Virus record (IMG/VR): IMGVR_UViG_3300042923_001106
Location: 1 to 64,000 of that record
DNA length: 64,000 nt
Direction: 5' to 3' (one strand)
From: a virus
Below, piece by piece: positions 46,672-63,188 of this stretch. The notes beneath the pieces were generated by a model, which searched no databases, had not been told where the DNA came from, and saw nothing but the letters and a program-made list of their open reading frames with translations. A program made the position numbers and the translations under genes. The stretch's first letter is position 1. The number at the start of each line of letters is the position of its first letter.

Positions 46672-46832
46672 TTTGTCCAAAGTGCAATATAAAAATGAAA
46701 CCTAAAACTGATAAAGAATTAAATGAAAAATATTATGATTGTGAGCAATGCGGATTTAATATTTTAAGATCCATTGCAAAAATGAAAATTCACAAGGAGA
46801 CTGAAAGAATAATTAAATACAGTATTCAATAA
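46668..46832 (+). CDS. 54-aa Zn-ribbon protein
   Basis: MICPKC...CEQCG; ATGA overlap with the upstream stop; GGAGG RBS. Confidence 0.65.
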   Translation: MICPKCNIKMKPKTDKELNEKYYDCEQCGFNILRSIAKMKIHKETERIIKYSIQ

Positions 46833-46865
46833 AATGAAAGTTTGAATTCATAGGAGGGAAAATAA

Positions 46866-47126
46866 ATGACTTATGAAGAAGCCAAAGCACACAAACTAAT
46901 ATTAGAGAAAAAGAATAATACTGATTCTAGCGCGCTGCAATTCTTCGAAAGAAACGCTATGGGATTAATACCGGATCATGTTAGAGAAACGCCAGAATGG
47001 AAAAGTGCTAAAAAGGCTTTTGATAGTTCTTTTGCCGAACTAAGAAACTTTAACGGATGGTTTGTTAAAATGTTTAAAAAAGAAATTTCTGCCGATAGAA
47101 ATTATAAACGATACGTGAGCAAATAA
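46866..47126 (+). CDS. Hypothetical phage protein
   Basis: AGGAGG RBS; stop overlaps an 18-bp palindrome. Confidence 0.7.
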   Translation: MTYEEAKAHKLILEKKNNTDSSALQFFERNAMGLIPDHVRETPEWKSAKKAFDSSFAELRNFNGWFVKMFKKEISADRNYKRYVSK

Positions 47127-47156
47127 AATTTTAATTTTATCATCCAAAATAAAGGA

Positions 47157-47411
47157 GTGTTTACCATTTCGCTATCATACAAAATCAAATTGTTGTCACA
47201 AGAAGAAAAAAGTAAATTTATTAGCATGTTAGATAAATGTTTAAAACTCCAATCTTTTTGGGTTAAATGTTTACTTGATACTAATAAAACAAATGAACAA
47301 TGTGACTTTGCATTAAATAAATTATATTCAATAGAGCAAGAGTTCAGAAACCGATTTAATTATTTGGGTTTGGATAGTTTCAGATTAAACGATAATAAAC
47401 TGTGCCTATAA
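47157..47411 (+). CDS. Hypothetical protein
   Basis: AAAGGA RBS; stop overlaps an 18-bp palindrome. Confidence 0.55.
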   Translation: MFTISLSYKIKLLSQEEKSKFISMLDKCLKLQSFWVKCLLDTNKTNEQCDFALNKLYSIEQEFRNRFNYLGLDSFRLNDNKLCL

Positions 47412-47435
47412 AATGTTACTTTTATTCCTTAAAGG

Positions 47436-47460
47436 ATCGGCAGCCATGCCGGTTTTTGTT
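47436..47460 (+). terminator. Rho-independent terminator
   Basis: ATCGGCA-GCCA-TGCCGGT followed by TTTTGTT. Confidence 0.65.
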
Positions 47461-47677
47461 TGTGTCTAAGCGTCTATATTCGCTTTATCATTGCTTATCC
47501 AGAATTTAAGTATATCCCTATGATTGAACCTAGAAACGTCTTACATTGGGTTTGTGGCGTTCTCAGCTCATATAAAATAAACATAAACAATAGTAAATAA
47601 AACATTTGTTTATCTATTCTTAGTATGATAATATTAATTTTAGGGATTCTATTCGCCCTAACATTAAATAAAATGGA

Positions 47678-48328
47678 GTGGTTTTTATTAAAAAGTGTTC
47701 TGATTGTAATAAAGAAAAACCTTTAAATGAGTATTATTTCAACTTTATTAAAAAGAAAAATGGGGAAGTTAAAATTTCGTATCATCCCAGATGTAGAGCG
47801 TGTTCGGTAATTCGTAATTCTGAATACCGAATAAAAAATGACAACAGAGAGAAAAGATTGGTGACACAAAAGCAATATAATAAACGTGAAGAAACTAAAG
47901 AATATCAAAATAAAATGAGGAGAGATGGATATAGAAAAGAATATTTAAGCGAGTATAGGAAAAGTAATCCTAATAAAATTAAAGAATATAATAAGAAGTA
48001 CTCAAACAAAAAGCATAAAATCACTATGAAAGAATGGGATGCCTGTCGTTTATATTTTGACTATAGGTGTGCATATTGCGGCAAAACTTGGGAGCAGAAT
48101 AAAAAAGAAACAAGAAAAGATTTACATCAAGAACATGCATATGATGACGGTGCGAATGATCTAAGTAATTGTATTCCATCATGTCAAAGTTGCAACAGTT
48201 CAAAACGTGAAAATGATTATATAGAGTGGTATTCGATTAATAACCCTTTGTTTAAGCAGGAAAGAATAGAGAAAATAGATAAATGGTTAATTGAGGAATA
48301 TAAGAGATATATTGAATTCATCCAATAA
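47678..48328 (+). CDS. HNH endonuclease
   Basis: CSDC N-terminus; CAYCG...HQEH...GANDLSNCIPSCQSCNSSK HNH core. Confidence 0.85.
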   Translation: MVFIKKCSDCNKEKPLNEYYFNFIKKKNGEVKISYHPRCRACSVIRNSEYRIKNDNREKRLVTQKQYNKREETKEYQNKMRRDGYRKEYLSEYRKSNPNKIKEYNKKYSNKKHKITMKEWDACRLYFDYRCAYCGKTWEQNKKETRKDLHQEHAYDDGANDLSNCIPSCQSCNSSKRENDYIEWYSINNPLFKQERIEKIDKWLIEEYKRYIEFIQ

Positions 48329-48385
48329 ATTACTGTTTTCATTCACCTATTTAAACTATAATCACAGTAAAGGAGTGAGTACATT

Positions 48386-48604
48386 ATGAATCAAATCACG
48401 AGTTTTTTAATCTATACGCAATACGGATTAGTTAATATCGTACATTCTCTAGAGGAATTGCAGCAGATTGAAAAAATAAATTGGATAAAGGTCGAGATAT
48501 GGAAATTTGGAACACGTCAAAATGTTATCGAAAAATGGAACGGCTACGATAAACTAATGGAATATGCAATCTTTTATTTCAAATTGATTCAGCCTAACAA
48601 ATGA
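48386..48604 (+). CDS. Hypothetical protein
   Basis: AAAGGAG RBS; stop overlaps a palindrome. Confidence 0.6.
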   Translation: MNQITSFLIYTQYGLVNIVHSLEELQQIEKINWIKVEIWKFGTRQNVIEKWNGYDKLMEYAIFYFKLIQPNK

Positions 48605-48700
48605 AAACTGGATTTTATCAATATGAATAAAATAAATGTTTGTAATAAAATAAATGTATGATATAATGTATTTAGACGAAAGAAGAAAGGGGCGATGTAA

Positions 48701-48895
48701 ATGATTATCATACAAGGTGCATACACCATTATGGCAGCAAACATAGCAACGGGAGAAACTGTACAGCATGACATGATTCTTCCTCTAGACGTAACCACTA
48801 TTCAACTTAAAAGGTTTTGTCGTCAAAAGTTTACCCGATTTATTGAGATAACAGATTTTGAACCAATACAAATGGAATTGAGCGGTGATAGATGA
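48701..48895 (+). CDS. Hypothetical protein
   Basis: Promoter-like -35/-10 at 48639-67 and AAAGGGG RBS. Confidence 0.55.
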   Translation: MIIIQGAYTIMAANIATGETVQHDMILPLDVTTIQLKRFCRQKFTRFIEITDFEPIQMELSGDR

Positions 48896-49005
48896 TAAGT
48901 AGATTAACTCGTTCGAGCGAGTATAAAAAGGCCACTAGGCTCGAAGCGTTCCCCTGTAATGGGGAGGAGGCAAGATAAATAATACATAGTATGGAGGCGT
49001 TCCAA

Positions 49006-51792
49006 ATGCACTATATTTACAAACGGGAAGCAAAGGTAATGATTGCTCATGCACTCGAAAAAAACGGATGGAAAGTTTACGGCTATCACGAAGACCAATC
49101 CGACAGCATGACCGACTATTATCACCCGGCCTCGTGGGATGGAATCGCTACAAAGAACGGTCATACACTCGTTATTGATAATTCCAATACATACTATTCC
49201 GGTTATGAAGTAAAGAAATATAACTATTCTGCACGTAAAGCTGTTGTAAATAACAATAACAAGATTGAAAAACTTCGTGCACTCGCTAATGATGAAGGAG
49301 CGACAGAAGGAGAAAAGGCGGCAGCACGTGAAGGAATCGAGCGCCTAACAGGTAAAGAAGCAAATGACGAACCTACATGGACAGTCATCGGCACTTACCC
49401 AACGTTTGCCCACGGTAATCCGGGTAAATGTTCATGGCACATAGAAAAAGACGGTCAAATATTGGCTAAAGGAACCGGCGTGTTTGCTTGCAATGAGTAT
49501 GATTGGGAGGACAAGACAAAAACAGCAGCAGAACAGAAACAGGAAAAAGTTACAGATATTATTGCTCGATTTGAAAAGGTATTAGGGGATTCTGATGCAC
49601 TGCAAGCCGAAGTAATTAAAGTTGAAAAGAAAATTATTAAACATGTAGAAATTGAAAAGACAAGTGTAACAGAAAGTGAAATTACCGAATGTTTTACTTT
49701 TATTATGAAGATTGATTACACGGGAGGTAATTGGAAGGGCAATAAATGGCAGATGGTTAGAAGATATGACAGCGAGAAAAGCGGAGCGAACTTTATATTT
49801 CAGCGCTTAGGTAAGCGCGGCAAGCCTGTTAATGGTGATTGGTGGTTAAGTGTTGAAAAACTTAATAAGATTCTTTCCAAAGGACACATTGCAATTGTAG
49901 AAATGCAAGAGGTTACAGAATACGAAGAAAAGACCGTATTTAAGAAAACTGGACGCAAGCAGCCTCAAGCAAACTTTGACAATGACGCTTTACCGGGAGA
50001 TGTTGAGGAGGAAACAACAGAAGAAACTACACAGGAGTCCGCACAAGCAAAGAAACAAACTGTAAAGCATGAAACAGTATCCGACAACGATCAAGCGACT
50101 AAAAAGCAACTATGGGCGCTACACTGTGCAACAAAGTTAAACACGACTAACCTTTTTATTACAAAAACTAAAGCGTCCGAGTTAATCAGCAAATCGAAAG
50201 CCGGTACAGATATAACGGACGAAGTGAAAGCATTATTAGGTATTGTAGACGCTCCAGAAGTGAAAGAGGAGTCGATAAAAGTAAATGCACAAGAGAGTCA
50301 ACAGAACGACGAAGATCCTGCAGATTGGATCTTAGACTATGCCACAAGTATTATAATGGATGATAATACGGATTCGGTTAAGAAACCGGAAACGGAGGAA
50401 GAAAAAGCAGATTTTAGAAACAAAATAATTGAGTATGTGAAGTACAAAGGAGATTCTGTTACCCAATCTCTTATCAATCATTTTATCTCATTAGGTTCTG
50501 GCGTAACCATCTTGTTAATTGTAGAGGCTTTGCAATCATTGAACGGTTCCCATAACAGCATAGACGAATTAAAGCAGGATGATTATACATTCAATATCGA
50601 TTCGTCATATCTGTACCACGATATACATTTCAAAGCATGGAACATGGAAATAGAACAAATTGAGCCGTATTTGAATGTTCGGGAAATACCATTTTACATT
50701 GCTGGTGATAAGTTTATATGTAAAGGTTTGACTATTGAACAAGTACAATTTATCGAAGGTTTGAACGCATCCAATCAGGCGATATTGTTTTATGATGATA
50801 AATACAACGAAAAGCCCAATAACAGCACCAGAACAGAAGAGCTTGAGAATCAGAATGAAAACACAATTTTATCATCCGATAACATTATATATCATAACTT
50901 TACCAGCAACCAAACCAATAAAGAGGAGACTGAAAACGAATATATGATTGACGATGACTTTTTAAGCAAATTTGATAATGTCGAAGTAACAAATGAGTCA
51001 AAGATTGCCGCTGATGACTTGGAATTCTGTAAGGAACAAGAAGACATTTATAAAAAACTTATTTCAACGTATAACAGTTTTAGTAGTCAATTGCAGGACA
51101 TTTCAAAATTAACTAAATCCATTAGTGAAAATTATACTTATACTAATAATGGATATACGCATAGACACGATACAGCATACTCTAGCAGCTTTTCACAAAG
51201 CGATATTAATGAAAAAATTAATAAAATGAAAGATCGCTTTATTAGCACAATCTGCTATTACTTTGAAAGAAAATACAATATAACAATTCAAGAAGAGAAA
51301 ATACAGAAAAAATATAAAGAATCCGTAACACTAGAAAACATTTTAGATGAAATACATATACAGTTAGAAGGATTCAATTTCACTGAGAAAGCAGAAAAAG
51401 AAATCAAGGACAAATCAAAAGAAATTGTAAGAAATAGTGATAAAATTACAATTAAAAACAACAAATTAATAATTGATGCTTGGTTTTCTCGCCTTGATTC
51501 AATTTGGAAAGAGTATAGAACTAACGGAGAAAGACTTACCAATATTTTTAATGCTCTCCAGCACTTCGAAAATGGGCAAATAAAAGGCAATGAGGAACTA
51601 ACTAAGAAATATATTGGCTATGATAACGAACGCAGCCAGTCAAACTATGAACGTTATGAACCGACAACATTAAGTAAAGTTGCTTCGATCAAAATTTTGA
51701 AAAATGGAAAACTTGAAATTGAATTTAAATCAAATCAACAGGCTACACAATTTGCAAAGGTTTATTGCGGATACAATCAAAAATCAGCATAA
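49006..51792 (+). CDS. Large polyvalent (multi-domain) early protein
   Basis: ATG 49006 after GGAGG; mosaic of segments (DQSDSMTDYY; KLRALA..EGATEGEKAAA; ATKKQLWAL; C-terminal DDFLSKFDNVEV region) joined by acidic linkers. Confidence 0.7.
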   Translation: MHYIYKREAKVMIAHALEKNGWKVYGYHEDQSDSMTDYYHPASWDGIATKNGHTLVIDNSNTYYSGYEVKKYNYSARKAVVNNNNKIEKLRALANDEGATEGEKAAAREGIERLTGKEANDEPTWTVIGTYPTFAHGNPGKCSWHIEKDGQILAKGTGVFACNEYDWEDKTKTAAEQKQEKVTDIIARFEKVLGDSDALQAEVIKVEKKIIKHVEIEKTSVTESEITECFTFIMKIDYTGGNWKGNKWQMVRRYDSEKSGANFIFQRLGKRGKPVNGDWWLSVEKLNKILSKGHIAIVEMQEVTEYEEKTVFKKTGRKQPQANFDNDALPGDVEEETTEETTQESAQAKKQTVKHETVSDNDQATKKQLWALHCATKLNTTNLFITKTKASELISKSKAGTDITDEVKALLGIVDAPEVKEESIKVNAQESQQNDEDPADWILDYATSIIMDDNTDSVKKPETEEEKADFRNKIIEYVKYKGDSVTQSLINHFISLGSGVTILLIVEALQSLNGSHNSIDELKQDDYTFNIDSSYLYHDIHFKAWNMEIEQIEPYLNVREIPFYIAGDKFICKGLTIEQVQFIEGLNASNQAILFYDDKYNEKPNNSTRTEELENQNENTILSSDNIIYHNFTSNQTNKEETENEYMIDDDFLSKFDNVEVTNESKIAADDLEFCKEQEDIYKKLISTYNSFSSQLQDISKLTKSISENYTYTNNGYTHRHDTAYSSSFSQSDINEKINKMKDRFISTICYYFERKYNITIQEEKIQKKYKESVTLENILDEIHIQLEGFNFTEKAEKEIKDKSKEIVRNSDKITIKNNKLIIDAWFSRLDSIWKEYRTNGERLTNIFNALQHFENGQIKGNEELTKKYIGYDNERSQSNYERYEPTTLSKVASIKILKNGKLEIEFKSNQQATQFAKVYCGYNQKSA

Positions 51793-51852: not shown

Positions 51853-54800
51853 ATGTATCAGATATCTAATACGGTCATACCACAAAATAAACGCGAGACG
51901 CTAAACAACAAAATTTTGCATCTGATCGAGAATAACCTAACTCAAAAATATAACGTGACTCCCAGTGATGTCTACAACGGCTATACGGGTTTCGGTGGTT
52001 TGCATGGTCTGAACTACAACGATTTCAATTCATATCATGCATTCAGTGAAGCGAAAAAACAAATCGAACTAGGGGCATTCTATACGCCTCATCATGTCTG
52101 CAAATTTCTTATAGAATGCTTGAAACCTTCTAGCCACGATCTAATAACAGACATGACATGTGGAATCGGAAACTTTTTTAACTGGCTTCCGAATCATTCT
52201 AATGTATATGGAAATGAAATTGACATTCGCGCTTACAAGGTGGCAAAATATCTTTACCCAAATATCAACATAACAGCGGATGACATTCGAAGCTGGTCAC
52301 CTAGCGTTTCGCTCGATTTGGTTATCGGTAATCCCCCATATAATCTAAAATTTAAAGTAGGCAAAGACGAATACCTTTCACAACTATACTACTGTCTAAA
52401 GTCTTATGACGTTCTCAAGCCTTCTGGACTTCTCGCTTTAATCCTTCCAGCATCATTCCTAGCAGATGATTTTAGCGACTCAGGCATGATCAAAACAATC
52501 AACGATAAATTTAACTTTATATATCAGGCCGAATTACCTTCTAATGTGTTCAAGTCTGTATCTGTAGAAAATTATCGTACCAAAATTATGTTCTTTCAAA
52601 AGAAAAGCGAACAAATAGCAGCCGATAAACCATATTCCACAACTTTACCTATAACAGCCATTGATCAAAATAGCAGCGATTTTATTTATAATACATATAT
52701 CAAGCCAGTTATCGAACAAAAAGAAAAAGTTAAGCATAAATTGTTTTTTGAGCAATTACATAGTAACAGTGGTGACGTAGAATTTCAGGAGAAAGTAAAA
52801 AAGTATCTCTTTGATATCAAGCGCAATAAATATGTTAAAAATTACTATGCCAAAGCTACTGAGTACGTGAATAGATATCACACGCAGAAACAACCTGAAG
52901 GAATGAAGTGGGATGAGTGGGAAAAGATCAGAATCAAAAAAGGAATGGTATTGTCATATCTTAAGAGAATCATCAAGAATCAACATAACAATGAACGAGA
53001 TGAGATACGGCTAATTAAAACAAATTTTTCAATCAAACTCAAGGGATACTCTCAGAAAAATAAAATATATCTATCCAAGTTTACCGGAACAAAAGAAATA
53101 TCATTCAATGATATGATCCTTAATGGCTCCTATCCATTTGAAGATGAAACATATAAATTTTTATATAACAGCAAACGTAAAAAGTTTCTAGTGCAATCAA
53201 AACCATTTAAGCAGATTAATGAAAATTCTAATATCAAATCATGGTTAGACAATTTCAGCCTGTACAATCAGGAAAAGAAAGAAACAATTCACCTAAAGGA
53301 TTTTCAAAAAGAGGATTTACAGAAGATCCTCCAGAAAGACAAAGCACTATTGGCTTGGAATGTCGGCCTCGGTAAAACAGAAGCGGGAATCACATGGATG
53401 TCATACATCAACCAGCATAAACATGTTAAGAATACATTCATTGTTTCATCTAGTATTTCAATTAAAATGACATGGACTCAACGGCTATCGAACTATGGCA
53501 TTAACTTTAAAAAAATAGAGTCACTAAAGGATATTAAAACTTTAACAAAAGGCGAGATTGTGCTAATCTCCTTTAGTATGCTTGTTAAGTACCAGAAGCA
53601 CTTAAAACATTACATCAAGAAGCAAGGAAGAAAACTAGCATTGATTCTCGATGAAAGTCACCGCTGTATCTATCCAAACACAAAGACAACGAAAGCAGCC
53701 TTATCTGTATTTCAACGTGTACCGTATAAATTATTAGCTTCTGGAACGCCAACGAAAAACAATGCTAACGAATTGTATTTACAATTCATGATCTTGTATG
53801 GAAGTAGCATCAATTTCTTATGTGAGTGTGAATATATATCTGTAGAAGACAAGAAAACCGGAGAATGGAAAGAGGTTCAGAATAAGTACTACATGAAGCC
53901 ATTCCCACAATATAATCAATCATTGTTTTCTGCTTGCTTCTCGCCAAAAAAAGCATCAGTTTTTGGAATTGAAAAAGGCAACCAAAATATTTTAAACTCG
54001 GATAAGCTGATTAAACTAATTGAAAAAACAATTATAGTGCGTAGTATGTTCGAAGTGTTAAACAGAGATATGGTCGAGTTTAAGACTCATCGTATAGAAC
54101 AGAACGTGAACGAAAAAGAAGTGTATCGGCTAATCATGGAGGAGTTTCATTCTATGGTTAGGAATTACTATGGATCGACTGGAAACCACAGAAAAGATAC
54201 TATGTTGCGGATCATCCAGCAAATTATGCTTCTTCAAAAAGCCGTAAGTATCCCACATAAACTAAAAGAGTACAACGGATACAAAGAGCCGAATAAATAC
54301 AAGAAAATTGTAAATATAGTAAACACTGCTAAGAACGAAAAAGTAGCATTAGGTGTAACGTTTATTGATTCGGCTACTTACTACTATCACAAGTTAAGAA
54401 GCGAGTTTCCAGATAGAAGGCTGTTCCAAATCCTTGGTGAAACACCATTCAAAAAACGCCAAGAGACTATTCAAGAGTTCGAGTCAACTACAAATGGCAT
54501 CCTTGTTTCGTCCCAACAATCACTCTCCGAGAGCGTCAATATCCCATCCTGTGACGTAGTAATATGCGAAGGTCTTCAATATAACATAGCCAACATTATG
54601 CAGTATGTGGGACGATTTACGCGCTTAAACAGCGAGAATAAGACGGTTATTCACTTTGTAACATATATAAACTCATTAGAACAGAATATTCTAGCTCTAT
54701 TAATGGCAAAGCAACGCATAAATGAATTTATAAAACAATGTGAGTACAAAGAAGATGCTGTGATATTTGATGAATTTGGAATCAGTTTGGATATTTTCAA

Positions 54801-54873
54801 CAACATCATCACAAAAGAAAAAGACGAAAACGGTCTGACAAAATTGAAATGGGGAGAGCAGTCAATTGTCTAA
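51853..54873 (+). CDS. N6-adenine methyltransferase + SF2 helicase fusion (DarB-like)
   Basis: GAFYTP, DMTCGIGNF, GNEID and GNPPY MTase motifs; GLGKT, DESH, SGT and QYVGRFTR helicase motifs. Confidence 0.85.
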   Translation: MYQISNTVIPQNKRETLNNKILHLIENNLTQKYNVTPSDVYNGYTGFGGLHGLNYNDFNSYHAFSEAKKQIELGAFYTPHHVCKFLIECLKPSSHDLITDMTCGIGNFFNWLPNHSNVYGNEIDIRAYKVAKYLYPNINITADDIRSWSPSVSLDLVIGNPPYNLKFKVGKDEYLSQLYYCLKSYDVLKPSGLLALILPASFLADDFSDSGMIKTINDKFNFIYQAELPSNVFKSVSVENYRTKIMFFQKKSEQIAADKPYSTTLPITAIDQNSSDFIYNTYIKPVIEQKEKVKHKLFFEQLHSNSGDVEFQEKVKKYLFDIKRNKYVKNYYAKATEYVNRYHTQKQPEGMKWDEWEKIRIKKGMVLSYLKRIIKNQHNNERDEIRLIKTNFSIKLKGYSQKNKIYLSKFTGTKEISFNDMILNGSYPFEDETYKFLYNSKRKKFLVQSKPFKQINENSNIKSWLDNFSLYNQEKKETIHLKDFQKEDLQKILQKDKALLAWNVGLGKTEAGITWMSYINQHKHVKNTFIVSSSISIKMTWTQRLSNYGINFKKIESLKDIKTLTKGEIVLISFSMLVKYQKHLKHYIKKQGRKLALILDESHRCIYPNTKTTKAALSVFQRVPYKLLASGTPTKNNANELYLQFMILYGSSINFLCECEYISVEDKKTGEWKEVQNKYYMKPFPQYNQSLFSACFSPKKASVFGIEKGNQNILNSDKLIKLIEKTIIVRSMFEVLNRDMVEFKTHRIEQNVNEKEVYRLIMEEFHSMVRNYYGSTGNHRKDTMLRIIQQIMLLQKAVSIPHKLKEYNGYKEPNKYKKIVNIVNTAKNEKVALGVTFIDSATYYYHKLRSEFPDRRLFQILGETPFKKRQETIQEFESTTNGILVSSQQSLSESVNIPSCDVVICEGLQYNIANIMQYVGRFTRLNSENKTVIHFVTYINSLEQNILALLMAKQRINEFIKQCEYKEDAVIFDEFGISLDIFNNIITKEKDENGLTKLKWGEQSIV

Positions 54874-54895: not shown

Positions 54896-54985
54896 AAAAT
54901 AAAACTTGATTTTTATAAAGTAAAAGTATATAAATAAAATTAACAAGTAAACCAATTGCAGAAATTTTAAGGGAGGAATACAAAA

Positions 54986-55100: not shown

Positions 55101-55499
55101 TTGTTTATAATGACTGAACAATTGGTAATGGACATAACAAATGATCTGAAAGCAACTGGCAACTTTAAACAGTACAACATTTCCGACATAAACAAGCACT
55201 ATCTTGATTCGTTTCAAAAAGGAAAATACCCGGATCTTTTGACTGATAAAAAGCAACGAATGAGTTTTAACCAATACCGATGCACCGTGAACAATTTTCT
55301 CGAATCGCTTTCTAAAGACGTTGCAATGGTTAAACGTGAGGATATTGATAACTTTCTTGCCCTGATCCCGAATGAGACGACAAGAGGCAACAAAGCAGCT
55401 CACATAAAAAGCTTCCTTGTATATCTCATATCTAACAATGTTAAGAATTGCACGAGCAAGATAAGTCGGGACTTGTTGATAAAACTTTTGGAGATGTAG
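55101..55499 (+). CDS. Stand-alone integrase N-terminal (SAM-like core-binding) domain protein
   Basis: YRCTVNNFLESL...EDIDNFL...KAAHIKSFLVYL; no catalytic domain. Confidence 0.55.
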   Translation: MFIMTEQLVMDITNDLKATGNFKQYNISDINKHYLDSFQKGKYPDLLTDKKQRMSFNQYRCTVNNFLESLSKDVAMVKREDIDNFLALIPNETTRGNKAAHIKSFLVYLISNNVKNCTSKISRDLLIKLLEM

Positions 55500-55567
55500 T
55501 AACTAAACATGATCCAATGAAATCAGAATTTTATTTGGAGTAAAAAATAAAAAATGGAGTGATAACA

Positions 55568-56438: not shown

Positions 56439-56549
56439 AAGAAGTTTTCGCAGCCCAATGGGACATGTTATAATTGTCATAATATACATAGGCTAACACT
56501 TAACAGTCAAGGGGAATGAAACCAGTCTTTCATAGGATAACAGAGAGGA

Positions 56550-56857: not shown

Positions 56858-57130
56858 TTGCCTGTGCGCTGCAAAGTGTCAAATGGGTATGCAGAAATCG
56901 GAGATATTATTTCTGTTAGTGAGTATGGTAATGCGCAATATAAAGTCACTGAGTTTGGGGACTATGAAGGCGCGCCGCAAATTAGATATCGAAGGATTTT
57001 TCCTGAGACTGGTGAATTCTATCCAGATACAATTGGATCATGGATGAGCTTAGAAGATGCTTCAACGGAGTTAAGATTGGTTAGCCAAAAGAAAAAGTTT
57101 AGTCTTCGTAATTGGATTAGTGGCAGATGA
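56858..57130 (+). CDS. Hypothetical protein
   Basis: Flanked by palindromes at 56824 and 57127 (the latter on its TGA). Confidence 0.55.
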   Translation: MPVRCKVSNGYAEIGDIISVSEYGNAQYKVTEFGDYEGAPQIRYRRIFPETGEFYPDTIGSWMSLEDASTELRLVSQKKKFSLRNWISGR

Positions 57131-57232
57131 AAACGGCATTTTATTTAGGATTTTTCTCTAATGAATTCTACATACACATTGTGGACTAGATTAAGATGCC
57201 AAAGGATATAAAATAAAACCAATGATGTAACT

Positions 57233-57544
57233 TCAAATAAATAATGGTTTTGGTCGAACTAAAAGTATAACATTTGTGGGTTTATGTTTATTCAATAATT
57301 CATACATTCTAAACCTTCCAAATGGGTTAGCAGAATGAATAACAATCTTTTTTGGATATGTTCTGTTCTGCACCATGTATCTAACGACTTCATAACCAGA
57401 TGGTTTGCCAAAGCCTAGATCATGGTCTAATGACAATGTGTTTACCTTATACTTGGTTATAATCTTAATACATTCATCTACTGTCTGAACATATTTATAT
57501 CCTTTTGGGCATGGACGAAGATCGTCCAAAAACACATTAATCAT
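57233..57544 (-). CDS. Cyclic-phosphate-processing receiver domain protein, copy 1
   Basis: VFLDDLRPCP, SLDHDLG, GYEVV and IHSANPFGR..M motifs. Confidence 0.8.
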   Translation of the reverse strand: MINVFLDDLRPCPKGYKYVQTVDECIKIITKYKVNTLSLDHDLGFGKPSGYEVVRYMVQNRTYPKKIVIHSANPFGRFRMYELLNKHKPTNVILLVRPKPLFI

Positions 57545-57692
57545 AAGTTAATCACCTACAATGGAAGGTAAGATATCCTGTTATTTTATGAAGTGAGCAT
57601 AATGATTGATTGGACACATCGACAAAAAAGTAATTAAATAAAAAGTATAAATAAAAAGTGTATTTCATGTGGTGAACTAGGAGTTGAAATTG

Positions 57693-57821
57693 ATGAATAA
57701 TTTGTTATGTAAATTGTCTGGACATTCACTTGATTTCTCAAAAGTTGTTGGACGACTATCAAAAACAAATTTAGTGAAATACAGATGTGTGCGATGCAAC
57801 AAAATAGTTGTGTGTAGATGA
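57693..57821 (+). CDS. 42-aa Cys/His protein
   Basis: MNNLLCKLSGH...CVRC...; AGGAG RBS; stop overlaps palindrome 57818. Confidence 0.55.
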   Translation: MNNLLCKLSGHSLDFSKVVGRLSKTNLVKYRCVRCNKIVVCR

Positions 57822-57854
57822 AATGTATCTTTCATTATGGAGGAGTGATGAAAA

Positions 57855-58207: not shown

Positions 58208-58396
58208 ATGAAATCTTTGGTTGGGTATAATGTTAAAGTTGAAACATCCAGACAGAATTATAGCGGAGTTGTAGTTGGTCATTTATTCCAGTCCAGTAAA
58301 GTAGATGTGAAGATTACAGAAGTAATCAAAGGAAATAAGAAAGTAGGAAAAGTCGCTCGGTTCTCAATGGATCAAATTACAACGGTTTCGGCATAA
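58208..58396 (+). CDS. Hypothetical small beta-barrel-like protein
   Basis: GAGGAGG RBS; stop overlaps palindrome 58393. Confidence 0.6.
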   Translation: MKSLVGYNVKVETSRQNYSGVVVGHLFQSSKVDVKITEVIKGNKKVGKVARFSMDQITTVSA

Positions 58397-58429
58397 AATT
58401 TGCATTTTAACGGGAGGGAAGGGGTTAAA

Positions 58430-58783
58430 ATGATTAATCTGTATGTTGACGATCTTCGTGATTGTCCTGAAGGCTTCGTTGTTGCTCGTACATATGAAGA
58501 AGCAATTAACCTTGTGGAAAATAACGAAATTGAAATCCTTACACTTGATCATGACCTTGGAGAAGACGCCAATGGCAAGGAACTTCCCAATGGATATGAC
58601 TTCGTTAAATGGTTCTGTGAAAACGGTAAACGAGCAAACAAAATTTATCTTCATACCGACAACCCTGTGGGTCGCAATAATATGTATGAAACGCTTCTCG
58701 CTGCTCAAAGAAGAGGTTTTATTGATGAAGATATTGAAATTTATCATTATCCGATTACGGCAAACAAATATTCTGGGCAATGA
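58430..58783 (+). CDS. Cyclic-phosphate-processing receiver domain protein, copy 2
   Basis: LYVDDLRDCP, TLDHDLG, GYDFV and LHTDNPVGR..M motifs; ATG 58430. Confidence 0.8.
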   Translation: MINLYVDDLRDCPEGFVVARTYEEAINLVENNEIEILTLDHDLGEDANGKELPNGYDFVKWFCENGKRANKIYLHTDNPVGRNNMYETLLAAQRRGFIDEDIEIYHYPITANKYSGQ

Positions 58784-58812
58784 AATATCTATTTCATTAG
58801 GAGGACTAACGA

Positions 58813-58974
58813 ATGGTTGAAAAGAAAGATTTCGAATTATTCACTAAAACATATCTTGCAGCAGGAGAAATGTTTGATTATGACGGGGATTCTTATGTTA
58901 CGATTTCTATTCTGGAAGTAAGAAGCAATTGGGAAGGAAAATGCATCATCACAGCACTTGTTGTTAAGCAATAA
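58813..58974 (+). CDS. Hypothetical 53-aa protein
   Basis: Read manually: MVEKKDFELF...LVVKQ; AGGAGG RBS; bounded by palindromes 58780 and 58971. Confidence 0.6.
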   Translation: MVEKKDFELFTKTYLAAGEMFDYDGDSYVTISILEVRSNWEGKCIITALVVKQ

Positions 58975-59006
58975 AATGTCCATTTTAATTGGAGGAGTAA
59001 ACGAAG

Positions 59007-59186
59007 ATGAGATATCCTACTTTATACGATAAGGATCAGATTGAATCAATTGTGTATCGACTTGTGGGCTACTGGAACAACGATAACTATGTACAATTTG
59101 TTAAACAATCAAATGAACTTTATGAGAAATACGGAGAGTTTCAAGCAGATGAGTTGATGAAAAAGATTAAGCAACAAATAAAATAA
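59007..59186 (+). CDS. Hypothetical 59-aa protein
   Basis: Read manually: MRYPTLYDKDQIES...KQQIK; GGAGGAG RBS; bounded by palindromes 58971 and 59178. Confidence 0.6.
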   Translation: MRYPTLYDKDQIESIVYRLVGYWNNDNYVQFVKQSNELYEKYGEFQADELMKKIKQQIK

Positions 59187-59217
59187 TTGTTTTATTAACT
59201 AAAAGGAGTGAAAATAA

Positions 59218-59436
59218 ATGAATATATGTAATGTGTATATAAATGTGTCTACTTCATTGATTGGAACATGTGATGTGGAAGTATTTTATCATGATCCAGT
59301 ATGTGATGAATGGGATATAGATGAGGATTTAACAAAGAAAAATTTGAATTCGAGAACTGAAGCTGATTTATACATCAATGAACTTTGGCAGCAAGACGAC
59401 ATAACTATCCGAATTCAGGATGTTAGATATTTTTAA
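59218..59436 (+). CDS. Hypothetical protein
   Basis: AAAGGAGTG RBS. Confidence 0.6.
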   Translation: MNICNVYINVSTSLIGTCDVEVFYHDPVCDEWDIDEDLTKKNLNSRTEADLYINELWQQDDITIRIQDVRYF

Positions 59437-59451
59437 AAGGAGGAGCAAGAA

Positions 59452-59703
59452 ATGAGCCAACTTTACCTATCTAAACCAAGAGGCGATAACAAACATCGTC
59501 TGTGGTTCAAATCCGAAGATCCTAAGAAGGTGAGCGAGTTTAAAGTGGCATGCTTCATGAAAATGGATATTGTTAAAGTCCAACCAATTCACCATACGGA
59601 TTCGAAGGATTTTCAAGTATTCGAATTTTGGAATGGAACATTCGATGAAATCGTTACAGAGTGTCAGAAGGTTGCTCGTATTCTAAATATAGAATTAATA
59701 TAG
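59452..59703 (+). CDS. Hypothetical protein
   Basis: AAAGGAGGAG RBS. Confidence 0.65.
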   Translation: MSQLYLSKPRGDNKHRLWFKSEDPKKVSEFKVACFMKMDIVKVQPIHHTDSKDFQVFEFWNGTFDEIVTECQKVARILNIELI

Positions 59704-59818
59704 GTATATCTTTGACCTTTAATTATGCTTATGCTGATTTTAATATAAATGCATCGGAAGTATCTGAGTCATAAAAGGAGAAGTTACTTTCTGGGCGGAT
59801 AAAATCCAAACAGGAGGC

Positions 59819-60007
59819 TTGGTTTGTATGTGGTTCAAGAAGAAAGAGGAGAGTTATCTTATTGATTTAGTCAAAGAACGAGATGGGTATGTTGTGCGTA
59901 ATCCATCGAACGGAGTAACAGTAAGATGCACAGAGAAATTTCTAGAATCATGGAAAGCAAGAGGTTTTGAAGTGATTTACGCAGGGAAAATAAAGCTTAT
60001 AGAATGA
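59819..60007 (+). CDS. Hypothetical protein
   Basis: AGGAGG RBS; followed by a terminator. Confidence 0.55.
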   Translation: MVCMWFKKKEESYLIDLVKERDGYVVRNPSNGVTVRCTEKFLESWKARGFEVIYAGKIKLIE

Positions 60008-60012
60008 CGGTG

Positions 60013-60032
60013 GAGGCGAAAGCCTCTTTTTT
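60013..60032 (+). terminator. Rho-independent terminator
   Basis: GAGGC-GAAA-GCCTC-TTTTTT. Confidence 0.75.
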
Positions 60033-60112
60033 GTTGTAATATTCTCAATGTGCGATTTTAAGAAATAAAAGAGCCGTTTTATTTACCGGCTCCTAGAAGT
60101 GTGTCCATATAT

Positions 60113-60484
60113 TTATACCGCTCTCTTGACGTCATTGTTAACAATCTCTTCAATATTGAAAATCAAAACTTTACTATACTCTTTTTGATAATACTCGAGT
60201 TGCTTCATCATTTTTTCTTCTGAGGTGTGTACTTCTCCAAACACGTATCCAATTGTATTACCGGCTCTAGCAATTAACCAGTTTTCTACTTGAACATGAT
60301 CCCCGTATACTATTCCCCATAGATCTAAAATTCTTTCGAAACCAATTGCAAACTTTTTACTTGTCACTATCTTTGCCTCCAATTTGTATTGCATATTGTT
60401 AGTATACATTAAGAACAAGTGTTCTGGTTGAATGTAAATAATGTCCGAAATGTCGTATGTGTACGATGAAAAATGTGGTTTCAT
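60113..60484 (-). CDS. Hypothetical protein (inverted relative to its neighbours)
   Basis: 123-aa ORF on the minus strand between palindromes 60065 and 60777. Confidence 0.5.
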   Translation of the reverse strand: MKPHFSSYTYDISDIIYIQPEHLFLMYTNNMQYKLEAKIVTSKKFAIGFERILDLWGIVYGDHVQVENWLIARAGNTIGYVFGEVHTSEEKMMKQLEYYQKEYSKVLIFNIEEIVNNDVKRAV

Positions 60485-60574
60485 AAATCAATTTAATAAA
60501 TAAATATACATAATAATAATGTTGTTATTGCGGTGTAATAGGTGTATAATATTAGTAAGTGGAAATAAGGAGGA

Positions 60575-60772
60575 TTGAACAGAATGGCTTGGGAGTTTGT
60601 GAAAACAAACATTGTAGGGTATGGTCGGCTGCTTGATCCAAAGGGAAAGGAATATAATGTTCAATACAATAATGAAGGAAATATAGAAGTTACAACGATT
60701 AAGCGTAATACAATAGTAAAAATTCCTCAGAAGGTACATAGAATGATTACCGAAAAAGTCTATAATACATGA
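60575..60772 (+). CDS. Hypothetical protein
   Basis: AAGGAGG RBS and upstream TATAAT. Confidence 0.55.
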   Translation: MNRMAWEFVKTNIVGYGRLLDPKGKEYNVQYNNEGNIEVTTIKRNTIVKIPQKVHRMITEKVYNT

Positions 60773-60844
60773 GTGGATAAAAGGGTTATTTCAATTGGTT
60801 AATAAAGTTGGTTTGAATAAATTATTGGAGGCGTTTATTGTAAT

Positions 60845-61150
60845 ATGATAACTAACAATCGTAACGAGATAGTGCAAAAATCCTTTCAATTGCAAGTTAG
60901 ACTTTCTAAAATGGCTAAAGAGGATAATCAGAATGAATTATTAAAAGCTTTACATAGCAATCATAACCAATTAAGACTTGATTATCGAATGAAAAGAATT
61001 TCATTTGAACAATTTCACGATGGATTTTTGTTAGTTAGCAATACTCTTGGTGAGATAGACAGGATTAGCACGGAGATACTAATGGATGCAGTTGAAAAGT
61101 TAGGACAGATGTCTTTATTGCATGGACGTCAAAATGTGGGGATAAAATGA
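60845..61150 (+). CDS. Hypothetical protein
   Basis: GGAGG RBS; its 3' end carries palindrome 61142. Confidence 0.55.
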   Translation: MITNNRNEIVQKSFQLQVRLSKMAKEDNQNELLKALHSNHNQLRLDYRMKRISFEQFHDGFLLVSNTLGEIDRISTEILMDAVEKLGQMSLLHGRQNVGIK

Positions 61151-61187
61151 CTGTTTCATCATCTTCAATGCTTCAGGAGGATTACAT

Positions 61188-61439
61188 ATGGCAAAAGCAA
61201 AAATACCAAAGCGGACAACTCGAGATGAATTTGTAATGGAAGAATTAGGGGACCAAATATCTGAAGCATTTAACGAAAAATCGGAAGTTCTTTTGACCAT
61301 ATGGGGATGGGAGCAACAATTGCGCGGAACGATAGTGCATTTAGATTCTCGAACAGGTAAGGTTCACGTTCAGAAACAGAATGAAACTGTTAAAGTTCCT
61401 TTCATGGATATTATGCAATTGGATTATCCGAGAGATTAG
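61188..61439 (+). CDS. YolD-like protein
   Basis: RPTRDEF-like KRTTRDEFVMEEL...TIWG...GTIVHLDS...VKVPFMDI pattern. Confidence 0.75.
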   Translation: MAKAKIPKRTTRDEFVMEELGDQISEAFNEKSEVLLTIWGWEQQLRGTIVHLDSRTGKVHVQKQNETVKVPFMDIMQLDYPRD

Positions 61440-61463
61440 AATCGAACAGTTTTTTCGGGATCA

Positions 61464-61712
61464 ATGAGGGGAGTTACAATGAAATACATAATGCCAACAT
61501 CCGACTGGATAAACTCGCTTAATATTGGTGATACAGTACTTGAAGTAACGACACCAAGAATCGGAGAAGATGCGTTAATAAAAGAAGTTAGAGTTAAATC
61601 TATATCGAAAACCGGAATAATTTCAGTTGAAGGAAGCAGCAACACTTTCAAAGATGGATATCGGAGAGGGTTTCAACACTCTGGAAACTGTTGGCTTCAA
61701 CCGATATCATAA
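61464..61712 (+). CDS. Hypothetical SH3/KOW-like protein
   Basis: LNIGDTVL...VKSISKTGIISV pattern; likely start 61479. Confidence 0.5.
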   Translation: MRGVTMKYIMPTSDWINSLNIGDTVLEVTTPRIGEDALIKEVRVKSISKTGIISVEGSSNTFKDGYRRGFQHSGNCWLQPIS

Positions 61713-61725
61713 AGGAGAAGAAGAA

Positions 61726-61968
61726 ATGAAAGTTCCAGCACATATTAAGGAATGTATAAGAAAAAATGCAAAAGCCAATGATATTGCGAGAAAAACAGAT
61801 GATGTGATACGTGATTGGTGACTGAAGAAGAATATTTGCAATGACTCAATCATAGACCAACTAATCGATTGTTGTGACAATACAAATAATCCTGAAAGTT
61901 TCATATTGTTTTTAGAGAATGAAGCTTCTTTTTTTGAAGGAAACGATGATGAGTATTTAGAGAATTGA
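61726..61968 (+). pseudogene. 80-codon ORF interrupted by an in-frame TGA at 61819-21
   Basis: MKVPAHIKECIRKNAKANDIARKTDDVIRDW*LKKNICNDSIIDQLIDCC...EYLEN*; AAAGGAG RBS. Confidence 0.6.
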
Positions 61969-62053
61969 AATTAATTGATTTCTTAGCGAAATAGAGAAGG
62001 AGAGTATTATGAAAGAGTTTTTGATTTGATTCAAAAGGCAAAAGGGGATTAGT

Positions 62054-62545
62054 ATGAACTTTCTTGAACAGTTGGCGAATGAGTGGTACTCGTATACGGA
62101 TCATTTTGTTCGCAATAATATTAAGTTTGATAAGCGTCCAAATGGAGGCTACAATGGAGAAATTGATGTAATAGCATTTAATTATAAGGAAAATCAACTA
62201 ATTCACATTGAAGCTTCTATGGATGCTAATCAAAATGAAAAACGAGTTATTGGCTTCAATAAGAAATTCCGTTTAACATTAGGGGAATACAACGAACTGT
62301 TGAAAACCGAGGCTACGAATATAAAGAAAATTGCAATAGTAGGCATATCGAAAACAGCAATTGATTTTGGAAACGGAATTCAGCATATTACTGTACCTGA
62401 TTTTGTAAACAATATAACGAATAGAATTAAGAACATTGATCCAATGAAAGCAGCAATTCCAGAAGGCTTCCCGTTGATGAGAGCAATCCAATTTTCAAAT
62501 TATTATATAAATAAAACAAAGGATGAAATTATCGTTAGGCAATGA
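62054..62545 (+). CDS. PD-(D/E)XK-like nuclease-fold protein
   Basis: EQLANEWY...GEIDVIAF...IHIEAS pattern. Confidence 0.6.
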   Translation: MNFLEQLANEWYSYTDHFVRNNIKFDKRPNGGYNGEIDVIAFNYKENQLIHIEASMDANQNEKRVIGFNKKFRLTLGEYNELLKTEATNIKKIAIVGISKTAIDFGNGIQHITVPDFVNNITNRIKNIDPMKAAIPEGFPLMRAIQFSNYYINKTKDEIIVRQ

Positions 62546-62594
62546 AATGGTTATTTTATGAATCGAGAAAGGACTATAGAAAGGGGGAAATAAG

Positions 62595-63155
62595 TTGTCT
62601 TACAATTTTAACAGAATAATCAGGTATGTAGCTGGAAATATTGTATTACATTATGATAAGAGGTCTGATAAAAAACGTCCCTATCTAATAATTTCTAACA
62701 ATTCTGCGGCGATTGACGGGTACTCTGATTATATCGTTCTACCGATCACGTCAAAAAATAAGCGAAAGAAGAAATTTATGATTGAAGTAGATCATGAATC
62801 TTGTGGACTAAAAGAACCAAGTTTCATAAAGGGCAATAAACCTGATGTTATAACTCAGGATGGAATAATTAAATTGATCGGAAATGTTGACTCTGTAATA
62901 TTGGAACAATCTAAAGAAGCCCTTGAAGATTGCATTAAAGACGAATCAATGAGCAGATACAAGGAGTCCTTTATGTACTGGATTAAAGCCTATAATGTTG
63001 CATACAGGTTGTCCTACACATTATCGGATGCAACAAATGGTATGAAGGATGAATTCCACACCTCGATAGGCAGATTTATTTTTGAGAATAAGTCAGTTTT
63101 AAAAATATCTTTGAATCCTGAATATCTCGATATATTAAAAATAAGAATTGAATAA
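62595..63155 (+). CDS. PemK/MazF-like toxin with C-terminal extension
   Basis: GNIVL...KKRPYLIISN...VLPITSK...GLKEPSFI PemK pattern. Confidence 0.7.
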   Translation: MSYNFNRIIRYVAGNIVLHYDKRSDKKRPYLIISNNSAAIDGYSDYIVLPITSKNKRKKKFMIEVDHESCGLKEPSFIKGNKPDVITQDGIIKLIGNVDSVILEQSKEALEDCIKDESMSRYKESFMYWIKAYNVAYRLSYTLSDATNGMKDEFHTSIGRFIFENKSVLKISLNPEYLDILKIRIE

Positions 63156-63188
63156 AATGGTTCTTTTAATGGGAGGTTGAATTGAATA

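Follow-up and report, generated by a model that had tools for sequence, protein, structure and literature searches.

Why does one short palindrome, ATRAAA-N6-TTTYAT, recur at one gene boundary after another in a phage genome? The window analysed here (64,000 nucleotides) is bases 1-64000 of an SPbeta-like Paenibacillus phage of 183,208 bp. A preliminary description had seen in it an accessory region cut into cassette-like units and offered three readings: (a) integron-like gene capture or shuffling, (b) an operator network, and (c) RNA-processing hairpins. Our answer, which we hold with about even confidence, is that the palindromes are register-keeping crossover points at gene boundaries, each addressed by its centre, with tyrosine recombinases as the candidate enzymes.

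The palindrome and its position relative to genes

The window contains 20 perfect palindromes against 0.25 +/- 0.46 (maximum 2) in dinucleotide shuffles, an enrichment stronger than had been claimed; when up to one mismatch is allowed, there are 32 matches against 6.0 expected. The 18 perfect copies listed earlier are all present, two (19104 and 56516) had been missed, and 16 rather than 15 lie within 47-63 kb. Nine one-mismatch copies lie inside 46.8-63.2 kb and agree with those implied earlier. These sites are given below in window coordinates; as palindromes they are assigned to no strand.

13659-13676, perfect; 4 nt past the stop codon that ends the YomM-like recombinase gene, in the late block on the minus strand
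15668-15685, perfect; intergenic, late block
19104-19121, perfect; overlap of two minus-strand late genes
28582-28599, perfect; right arm provides the minus-strand stop codon of 28596-28919
46834-46851, one mismatch, centre GTTTGA; identical 18-mer in relative L009
47123-47140, perfect, centre TTTTAA; left arm is the stop of 46866-47126
47408-47425, perfect, centre TGTTAC; left arm is the stop of 47157-47411; centre also in L010 and L020/G002
48325-48342, one mismatch, centre TACTGT; HNH gene 47678-48328 has its stop in the left arm
48601-48618, perfect, centre ACTGGA; left arm is the stop of 48386-48604
50855-50872, perfect; within a 933-aa ORF, close to a domain boundary
51050-51067, one mismatch; within the 933-aa ORF
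54899-54916, perfect, centre CTTGAT; 26 nt past the methylase-helicase gene
55517-55534, perfect, centre TCAGAA; centre also in Paenibacillus xylaniclasticus prophage L049
56153-56170, one mismatch, centre TAATGC; from the mismatch scan
56516-56533, perfect, centre CCAGTC; centre also in L010 and L049
56824-56841, perfect, centre CAAGTA; from the perfect-match scan
57127-57144, perfect, centre ACGGCA; 56858-57130 has its stop in the left arm; borders an inverted block on the left
57651-57668, perfect, centre AGTGTA; right border of inverted gene 57233-57544
57818-57835, perfect, centre TGTATC; left arm overlaps the upstream stop codon
58164-58181, one mismatch, centre TCTACA; from the mismatch scan
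58393-58410, one mismatch, centre TTTGCA; left arm is the stop of 58208-58396; collinear with G001 66845
58780-58797, perfect, centre TATCTA; left arm is the stop of 58400-58783
58971-58988, one mismatch, centre TGTCCA; left arm is the stop of 58813-58974
59178-59195, perfect, centre TAATTG; collinear with G001 67902
60065-60082, perfect, centre GAGCCG; left border of inverted pair 60113-60739
60777-60794, one mismatch, centre GGGTTA; right border of the same pair; centre also in G001, L009, L044
61142-61159, perfect, centre TGACTG; centre also in G001, G002, L009, L043, L044
62542-62559, perfect, centre TGGTTA; left arm is the stop of 62054-62545
63152-63169, one mismatch, centre TGGTTC; MazF-like gene 62595-63155 has its stop in the left arm

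The bounded accessory region proposed for 46829-63169 is not an island: the density is unchanged beyond the window, up to about 135 kb of the record, and the full 183-kb genome has 76 perfect copies (Markov-3 expectation 0.97). SPbeta and all close relatives are enriched as well (39, 38, 14, 20, 12 and 14 copies; controls 0-5). The extended form is 20 bp long, with A at -1 in 72% and T at +1 in 58% of copies, and the ends of the centre favour T and A, respectively.

At least 62 of the 76 copies are intergenic, though 90% of the genome is ORF, and nearly all lie among the plus-strand early genes. An arm overlaps a stop codon in 27 of the 76 copies genome-wide. In the window the overlap was confirmed at all eleven plus-strand positions named earlier and at 28598 on the minus strand. 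It had also been said that a ribosome site soon follows; indeed, the start codon lies 15-36 nt past the palindrome, with a GGAGG-type site between. The placing of the inverted genes between copies was likewise correct (57233-57544 between 57127 and 57651; the pair 60113-60739 between 60065 and 60777).

Intergenic placement inside operons would suit an element acting at the RNA level, whether a hairpin for processing or stability, a terminator, or a promoter read by the RNA polymerase of host or phage, but we consider this extremely improbable. Over the 76 copies of the whole genome the R and Y arm positions combine as A-C 25, A-T 22, G-T 17 and G-C 12 times, without covariation, and in a third of the copies A would stand opposite C within an A/U stem of 6 bp. 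The RNA or single-stranded DNA hairpin is therefore rejected, and option (c) with it; since R and Y vary independently, we take the arms to be two half-sites on duplex DNA. Sigma-70-like promoters (66 found, 83 expected) and intrinsic terminators (6 found, 7.6 expected) are not enriched and none coincides with a palindrome, so neither identity was retained; the symmetry, too, is unlike that of a promoter.

Centres and slots across related phages

The earlier remark that the 6-bp spacers all differ is correct: the 124 sites of the genome contain no duplicate centre (null mean 3.95, P(0)=0.008). This had been held to argue against lox-type exchange. We believe the reverse, since unique centres kept between phages are what a register-keeping scheme of the heterospecific lox type predicts. 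This phage and its relative G001 have 21 centres in common (null 3.8), and 18 of the 21 are collinear, a number reached in 0 of 20,000 permutations (maximum 12); TGACTG always follows GGGTTA in phages having both. Identity at shared-centre sites ends with the 18 bp, the 60-bp flanks being 20-40% identical, as in random sequence. Slots between the same two centres, compared in two to five phages, show no blastn or tblastx similarity of content. Homologous genes adjoin different centres in different phages, one gene can occupy different slots, and G002 and L043 have their blocks of centres in another arrangement; strict exchange between equal centres is thus not the sole process.

These data bear on integron-like capture, in which each gene would be a travelling cassette with its own folded single-stranded site. 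The sites do overlap stop codons and bound single genes, and one difference between SPbeta and phi3T resembles the insertion of one gene and one site. However, the paired positions do not covary, the centre order is kept while genes change and homologous genes have different centres, and the site is 18 bp rather than 57-141 bp long; we regard this mechanism as very unlikely. The shuffling part of option (a) stands, given the gene-content differences and laboratory joins at the sites, while its integron-like part does not. Integron attC sites and the pdif/Xer modules of Acinetobacter plasmids are likewise tyrosine-recombinase sites that bound gene-sized modules. The attC site, which overlaps stop codons too, is long, folds as a single strand and travels along with its cassette; host XerC and XerD act on pdif, which has an 11-6-11 layout. 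Here, in contrast, the sites stay and the genes change.

Breakpoints, laboratory recombinants and the proposed exchange

Homology blocks were compared among the B. subtilis phages SPbeta, phi3T, Goe13, SPR and SPbetaL4. Of the 126 block ends, 50 (40%) lie within 25 bp of a palindrome, while only 3-5% of positions are that near. Breakpoints occur at 10 of 14 palindrome sites versus 10 of 35 motif-less junctions (p=0.0096); about half of the breakpoints in this family are away from any recognisable palindrome. One centre connects several left and right flanks in different combinations.

An evolution experiment gave 17 unique junctions, 16 homologous and one non-homologous (Dragos et al., Suppl. 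Table 1). Placed by a coordinate offset that we derived from two anchors, the sole non-homologous junction maps to the first base of a perfect SPbeta palindrome, and the phi3Ts-side junction coordinate is 14 bp upstream of a palindrome copy. For the junction with 30-bp homology, identity forms a lone island of 21 bp that encloses another palindrome. Palindrome islands of 18-21 bp gave 2 of the 17 unique junctions, although tens of kb of homology are common to the two phages. What is shown, then, is that there are such sites, each unique and conserved in order, and that they lie at gene-content changes and at the joins of laboratory recombinants.

Inverted arms around an asymmetric 6-bp centre are the architecture of tyrosine-recombinase core sites, and the palindromes are probably core sites of phage orphan tyrosine recombinases; the reaction would be site-specific recombination by a candidate enzyme of the YopP or YomM type. 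Each site would consist of two invariant 6-7-bp inverted arms, which bind the recombinase, and a 6-bp centre unique in the genome, whose identity would be needed for strand exchange, as with heterospecific lox/FRT. In a cell that contains two related phages, or a phage alongside a resident prophage, DNA would be exchanged inside the 18 bp between copies with equal centres; everything on one side of the crossover would be swapped in register, and the product would still be a complete genome. With repeated exchange the interval between two sites would become a slot able to hold unrelated genes, and occasional exchange between unequal centres may add or remove slot content.

Heterospecific lox/FRT and tyrosine-recombinase core sites likewise have inverted arms around a 6-8-bp asymmetric centre. 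Heterospecific lox/FRT sites, which serve recombinase-mediated cassette exchange, recombine only with an equal centre, many of them coexist unscrambled, and the content between two different ones can be replaced. That scheme is engineered, whereas the palindromes have 7-bp arms and a candidate enzyme only; we know of no natural array of about 100 heterospecific sites. Conserved arms of only 7 bp are below the arm length of lox, FRT and dif, which counts against the mechanism.

Candidate proteins and the binding-site alternative

The proteins concerned are as follows.

13680-14663, minus strand; YomM-like tyrosine recombinase, 327 aa (Pfam PF00589, E 1.5e-19), complete R-K-HxxR-H-Y set; candidate enzyme
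40242-41378, plus strand; YopP-like homologue of tyrosine recombinases, 378 aa; like SPbeta YopP, it has Lys at the position of the second catalytic Arg; candidate for the enzyme or for a binder
47678-48328, plus strand; HNH endonuclease homologous to YoqL, with conserved counterparts in G001, G002 and SPbeta; candidate for break-induced exchange
55101-55499, plus strand; 132 aa; resembles the SAM-like core-binding domain of tyrosine recombinases standing alone; candidate for binding the sites

The two recombinases had reasonably been named as partners, and the protein at 55101 does resemble a lone core-binding domain (Pfam match sub-threshold, E 0.01; Atlas feature score 0.95, TM 0.63, with MrpR_N_CB among the matches). 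A change from Arg to Lys at the second catalytic Arg cripples Cre and Flp, and the Lys of the YopP family counts against the recombinase mechanism. Among 10 related genomes, some incomplete, two PF00589 genes occur in 7 of 7 motif-rich ones (11 or more copies), and none or one in the three motif-poor ones (0-3 copies); the complete genome G007 has neither palindrome nor PF00589 recombinase.

Alternatively, the palindromes might be cut or nick sites of a phage endonuclease such as the HNH protein, repair from a co-resident relative swapping the flanks. The conservation of the HNH gene and the bipartite form with an N6 spacer, known from some restriction-type recognition sites, agree with this. 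We nevertheless think it improbable: break repair copies flanks through homology and the flanks here are non-homologous, the unique, conserved centres are left without a reason, and about 100 self-cleavage sites would require protection of the phage.

A possible, though in our view rather doubtful, alternative is that the palindrome is primarily the operator or roadblock at which a dimeric DNA-binding protein of the phage silences early genes or sets their timing, in the manner of stoperators, exchange being a by-product; the binder could be a catalytically weak YopP or the lone core-binding-domain protein. As the sole conserved sequence between variable genes, and perhaps an obstacle to replication forks, it would be the place where general or phage single-strand-annealing recombination joins genomes. 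The palindromic sites with independent half-sites would suit such a protein, as would their position directly upstream of ribosome sites and near confinement to the early plus-strand block. Lysogens express YopP, which has the active-site Arg to Lys change, and a recombinase-fold repressor, MrpR, is already known in the SPbeta family (PMC10516654). Yet this alternative predicts neither unique centres within a genome nor an order kept between distant phages, and general recombination would have had very little length to work with in the islands of 18-21 bp, from which two junctions nevertheless came.

The precedent is that of the Cluster A mycobacteriophage stoperators, which likewise repeat one short protein-binding word dozens of times in the narrow gaps between genes across the genome of a temperate phage, frequently in contact with stop or start codons (PMC9283540, PMC6550527). 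Unlike the palindromes, they are asymmetric words of 13-14 bp that follow the direction of transcription, and the repressor that binds them is monomeric (PMC9283540, PMC6550527); no role as addressed exchange points is known for them. The operator of MrpR in SPbeta, SPBRE, is also repeated, intergenic, of the same phage family and bound by a recombinase-fold protein (PMC10516654), with about ten copies at promoters. Its core, which we derived as shared by 9 of 10 MrpR-bound promoters, is AATATGTATA, a different word that occurs only twice in this phage genome; the palindrome is therefore not SPBRE, and this comparison within option (b) fails. An operator network as the second or primary function is something we can suggest only tentatively.

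Returning to register-keeping crossover points, a natural likeness is with the T4-type PeSL (promoter-early stem-loop), short intergenic repeats which also flank variable small early genes and mark boundaries of insertion, deletion and replacement between related phages; PeSL combine a promoter and a terminator and act via ordinary sequence homology (PMC2839356, PMC4122927). Here, by contrast, we have an 18-20-bp protein-type palindrome without promoter or terminator, its centre unique to each copy and conserved across genera. The modular theory of phage evolution (Susskind and Botstein) proposed that short conserved intergenic 'linker' sequences guide module exchange; to our knowledge, such linkers have rarely been found. 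Compared with them, the palindromes are explicit, numerous, palindromic and individually addressed. Through these palindromes the mosaicism of phage genomes, a classic puzzle, is testable in the model phage SPbeta.

Distribution and form of the palindrome

The 18-bp palindrome ATRAAA-N6-TTTYAT is present in the window in 20 perfect copies against 0.25 expected from dinucleotide shuffles; with up to one mismatch there are 32 matches against 6 expected. The list of 18 perfect copies and the other items in the preliminary description are correct; two further perfect copies, at 19104 and 56516, had been missed. The motif was assigned there to an accessory region; it is indeed found in that region, which is, however, not bounded but merely the first part of a genome-wide array, since the copies cluster between 47 and about 135 kb, where the small early genes make up a long block on the plus strand. 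The whole 183,208-bp record has 76 perfect copies (control word 0; Markov-3 expectation 0.97), and palindromes are rare in the minus-strand structural block.

At least 62 of the 76 copies are intergenic in a genome that is 90% ORF. In 27 of the 76 copies the upstream gene terminates at a stop codon contained in the left arm, and the next start codon comes 15-45 nt after the palindrome, with a normal ribosome site in between. The conserved word effectively covers 20 bp, with an A preceding and a T following the 18-mer, and the centre (the N6 of each copy) tends to begin with T and end with A. The site has perfect inverted arms of 6-7 bp on either side of its 6-bp centre, with conservation extending over no more than 7 bp in each arm. 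No centre is palindromic, and each differs from the others. The commonest one-mismatch variant in this Paenibacillus phage is T to A at position 18 (12 copies). The usual form in B. subtilis phages (loci L052-L055 and SPBc2, the SPbeta reference) is ATAAAA-N6-TTTTAA, which is not fully symmetric because its last base is A; in these phages the upstream stop codon mostly abuts the left arm instead of lying inside it.

A hairpin in RNA or single-stranded DNA was considered and rejected: positions 3 and 16 combine as A-C (25), A-T (22), G-T (17) and G-C (12), with no covariation, and 33% of the copies would contain A-C mismatches. As the two positions vary independently, the arms are two half-sites read on duplex DNA. 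The operator SPBRE, which has a 15-bp consensus and is bound by MrpR in SPbeta, was also rejected. Ten MrpR-bound promoters from the ChAP-seq data of PMC10516654 were scanned for a common word; the derived core, AATATGTATA, is common to 9 of the 10, is unrelated to the palindrome and has 2 copies in this genome. A promoter or terminator was rejected as well: sigma-70-like promoters and intrinsic terminators are neither enriched in 46-64 kb nor coincident with the sites. A search of the genome for a second repeated operator-like word returned low-complexity words only.

The copy at 60065 may double as part of a bidirectional terminator. Its centre and the following bases form a G+C-rich inverted repeat (GAGCCG ... 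CCGGCTC; window 60065-60100), which lies at the 3' end of the minus-strand gene 60113-60484 and 58 nt past the plus-strand gene 59819-60007.

Conservation of the centres among relatives

The nearest prophages are in Paenibacillus; a scan of GTDB genomes gave three prophages only, all of them distant, and megablast of 46-64 kb against GenBank phages gave no match. Relatives were collected using the methylase-helicase gene 51853-54873. Five of them have 39, 38, 14, 20 and 12 perfect copies (controls 0-5), and SPbeta has 14 against 0.62 expected. The blastn alignments with the five nearest IMG/VR relatives extend mainly over two large genes, so that classical breakpoint mapping is impossible in this lineage, and shared centres were used for the comparison. 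An unbiased search for exact 14-mers in common was uninformative, as fortuitous AT-rich matches dominated it.

Among the 124 copies in the genome with at most one mismatch, no centre is shared by two, whichever the orientation; the mean of position-preserving shuffles is 3.95 duplicate pairs, and only 0.8% of trials have none. The relative G001, whose conserved proteins have no more than about 50-78% identity to those of this genome, has 21 centres in common with it, all in matching orientation (null 3.8, maximum 11). Of these 21, 18 are collinear over 100 kb, a number reached in 0 of 20,000 permutations (maximum 12). Four of the collinear pairs are within 46829-63169.

Collinear sites with identical centres, position in the window and position in G001
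58393 in the window, 66845 in G001
59178 in the window, 67902 in G001
60777 in the window, 70166 in G001
61142 in the window, 70426 in G001

The identity with G001 does not extend beyond the 18 bp: the 60-bp flanks on each side match at 20-40%, the random level. For about half of the 25 sites in 46829-63169 the centre is common to at least one of nine relatives, some of the partner sites having two mismatches. The pair GGGTTA then TGACTG recurs in four phages.

The DNA between the same two centres has no blastn or tblastx similarity in any phage pair (six slots, 2-5 phages each). Homologous genes of different phages, in turn, are flanked by unrelated centres at a Hamming distance of 3-6; the 83-aa gene 61188-61439, for example, precedes GGGTTA in two phages and follows TGACTG in another two. 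Since the same centres bound unrelated genes and homologous genes carry different centres, the sites are a conserved scaffold through which genes move. With G001 and a further relative, G002, pooled, the motif is at 0 of 12 conserved adjacencies versus 44 of 119 breakpoints (p=0.008, with crude ORF calls and too few conserved adjacencies). An inversion was also considered where the inverted gene 57233-57544 and its homologue in G002 both adjoin a TCTACA centre; the comparison gave no clean picture, and this reading was dropped. The 101-aa gene 60845-61150 has no relatives in IMG/VR.

Several genes of the early block can be noted separately.

44506-45888: 460-aa protein upstream of the methylase-helicase, with a C-terminal DarA_C (defence against restriction) domain
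48991-51792: 933-aa ORF with two palindromes inside (50855 and 51050)
51853-54873: 1006-aa fusion of an N6-adenine methylase and an SNF2/DEAD helicase; no other early gene is as well conserved among the relatives (43-78% identity)
62054-63155: 163-aa ORF, then a 186-aa PemK/MazF-like toxin homologue (Pfam E 1.4e-10)

The DarA_C protein and the methylase-helicase suggest an anti-restriction module heading the early block. The palindromes in the 933-aa ORF are at the border of its variable middle and conserved C-terminal parts, where a PHROG 27491 match starts from residue 617 and blastn similarity to relatives resumes at 50953-50968; this position suggests that exchange joints may work in frame inside a multi-domain gene as well. 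The 163-aa ORF and the MazF-like gene are each bounded by a palindrome whose left arm is the stop codon, and they may be a toxin-antitoxin pair occupying two adjacent slots. MazEF is already involved in SPbeta biology, via YopM.

Breakpoints in the SPbeta family and in laboratory recombinants

The segment 81-101 kb of SPBc2 was compared with the matching regions of Goe13, phi3T, SPbetaL4 and SPR, in which the blocks are 90-100% identical. Homology-block ends lie within 25 bp of a palindrome in 50 cases of 126, most of them at 0-5 bp, versus 3-5% of positions that are so close. In SPBc2 coordinates these are 27 distinct breakpoints: 11 at palindromes (4.8% of the sequence), 10 in other intergenic DNA (14.6%) and 6 within genes. 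Breakpoints are found at 10 of 14 sites versus 10 of 35 motif-less junctions (p=0.0096).

The order of the centres is kept in all five phages, and one centre can join varied left and right flanks. The flank combinations of AGACTG (1-a, 1-b, 2-b, 2-c and 3-d) amount to reassortment exactly at the 18 bp. An insertion or deletion of one slot distinguishes SPbeta, with TTGAAG and AGACTG, from phi3T, with AGACTG only; it involves two different centres. At 15986 of phi3T (L053) the centre is the exact reverse complement of that at SPBc2 99497 (TTATCA versus TGATAA); its left flank resembles Goe13 and SPbetaL4, and the right flank is different. A simple site-specific inversion does not account for this case, since it would leave the centre and the outer flank in the same relative orientation.

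From an evolution experiment on B. subtilis carrying SPbeta and phi3Ts, Dragos et al. (bioRxiv 10.1101/2020.05.06.055103) listed 16 homologous junctions and one non-homologous junction. We inferred the offset between their chromosome coordinates and SPBc2 from two anchors (2170317 to 116130; 2172784 to 113663). With this offset the non-homologous junction N1 maps to 116414, where a perfect palindrome with the centre TATTCC begins; the same TATTCC palindrome is found in phi3Ts 14 bp beyond the reported N1 coordinate, and neither flank is related between the two phages. Junction 7, reported with 30 bp of homology, falls on 69415 with the same offset; all that the two phages have in common there is a 21-bp exact island, the palindrome at 69423 (centre TGCATA), in otherwise unrelated DNA, and a short-repeat assembly artefact is a residual possibility at this junction. 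Thus placed by the inferred offset, the two junctions of Dragos et al. with the least homology are both at palindromes, though the phages share tens of kilobases of homology. Two more junction borders are at offsets 0 and -2 from palindromes. We consider it highly probable that the sites are real points of exchange.

Candidate enzymes, known systems and significance

Inverted arms around an asymmetric 6-bp centre correspond to the layout of a tyrosine-recombinase core site. A need for matching centres would explain why they are unique within a genome and why they are conserved from one genome to another. SPbeta-like phages, which integrate by means of a serine recombinase, have nevertheless retained two homologues of tyrosine recombinases. 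The candidate proteins are as follows.

13680-14663, minus strand: YomM-like protein with the full R-K-HxxR-H-Y set, a candidate enzyme
40242-41378, plus strand: YopP-like protein, 378 aa, homologue of SPbeta YopP (about 30% identical), with Lys at the second Arg, likewise in SPbeta YopP
41421-42203: 260-aa protein beside the YopP-like gene, matching PHROG 19047, transcriptional regulator (E 9e-47); a further candidate binder of the repeated sites
55101-55499, plus strand: 132-aa protein resembling a lone core-binding domain (sub-threshold Pfam E 0.01; Atlas 0.95, TM 0.63)

Lysogens express YopP. With the YopP-like protein as the query, phmmer gave no match in PDB. The 41421-42203 gene occupies the position of the HTH protein YopO in SPbeta.

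Two PF00589 proteins are encoded in 7 of 7 genomes with at least 11 motif copies; relatives with 3, 1 and 0 copies have one, one and none, respectively. The complete 116.7-kb genome G007 (the IMG/VR record of locus L017), with direct terminal repeats, lacks both the palindrome and a tyrosine recombinase gene and is a natural negative control; it possibly represents a strictly lytic branch of the group. All these lines are associations, not proof. We put the action of a dedicated site-specific enzyme on the sites at nearly even odds.

The palindrome departs from integron attC, SPBRE, PeSL and stoperators in their defining properties. An attC site folds as a single strand and its paired positions covary, whereas the palindrome has no covariation; the integron site travels with its cassette, whereas here the sites stay while the genes change. 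An integron array is headed by attI and the promoter Pc, next to an IntI-type integrase; no array head is evident here. PeSL cassettes of T4-type phages, the closest natural parallels (PMC2839356, PMC4122927), likewise flank variable small ORFs and mark the boundaries of indels or replacements between relatives, but they consist of an early promoter followed by a stem-loop terminator, and the palindrome has neither.

The closest natural parallel in distribution is the mycobacteriophage stoperators (PMC9283540), which are similarly numerous and similarly placed in the short gaps between genes of a temperate phage. They are bound by the immunity repressor and stop elongation. This likeness is relevant to the explanation that the sites are operators or roadblocks and recombination is a by-product. 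Stoperators, however, are asymmetric and oriented with transcription, whereas the palindrome is symmetric, and we hold this explanation to be rather unlikely.

The layout of lox, FRT and dif-like core sites, inverted arms round an asymmetric centre of 6-8 bp, is shared by the palindrome, but their arms are usually 9-13 bp long versus the 7 bp conserved here. Arms of 7 bp are comparable to those of weak lambda Int core sites. In such sites cleavage is staggered at the borders of the centre and passes through a 3'-phosphotyrosine intermediate. The closest working analogy is the engineered exchange of cassettes between heterospecific lox or FRT sites. We tentatively propose, as a possibility, a natural cassette-exchange system of about 100 heterospecific sites with 6-bp addresses, served by a phage tyrosine recombinase of the YopP or YomM type and perhaps modulated by the lone core-binding-domain protein, in which slots would be swapped in register between co-resident phages or prophages without homology.

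We found no description of the palindrome in the SPbeta literature open to searching. To our knowledge, the molecular exchange points of phage mosaics are rarely visible, and boundary sequences, proposed since the 1970s, have seldom been found. The joints reported here are explicit, numerous and conserved from Paenibacillus to Bacillus subtilis phages; they are present in the genetically tractable phages SPbeta and phi3T. The sites predict where hybrid phages form and could be used as landing pads in phage engineering. If a dedicated enzyme reads the six-base centres, the system would be the natural equivalent of cassette exchange engineered with heterospecific lox sites, would account for the fast turnover of anti-defence and other accessory genes in these large temperate phages, and would provide a function for YopP and YomM, the conserved recombinase homologues of SPbeta.
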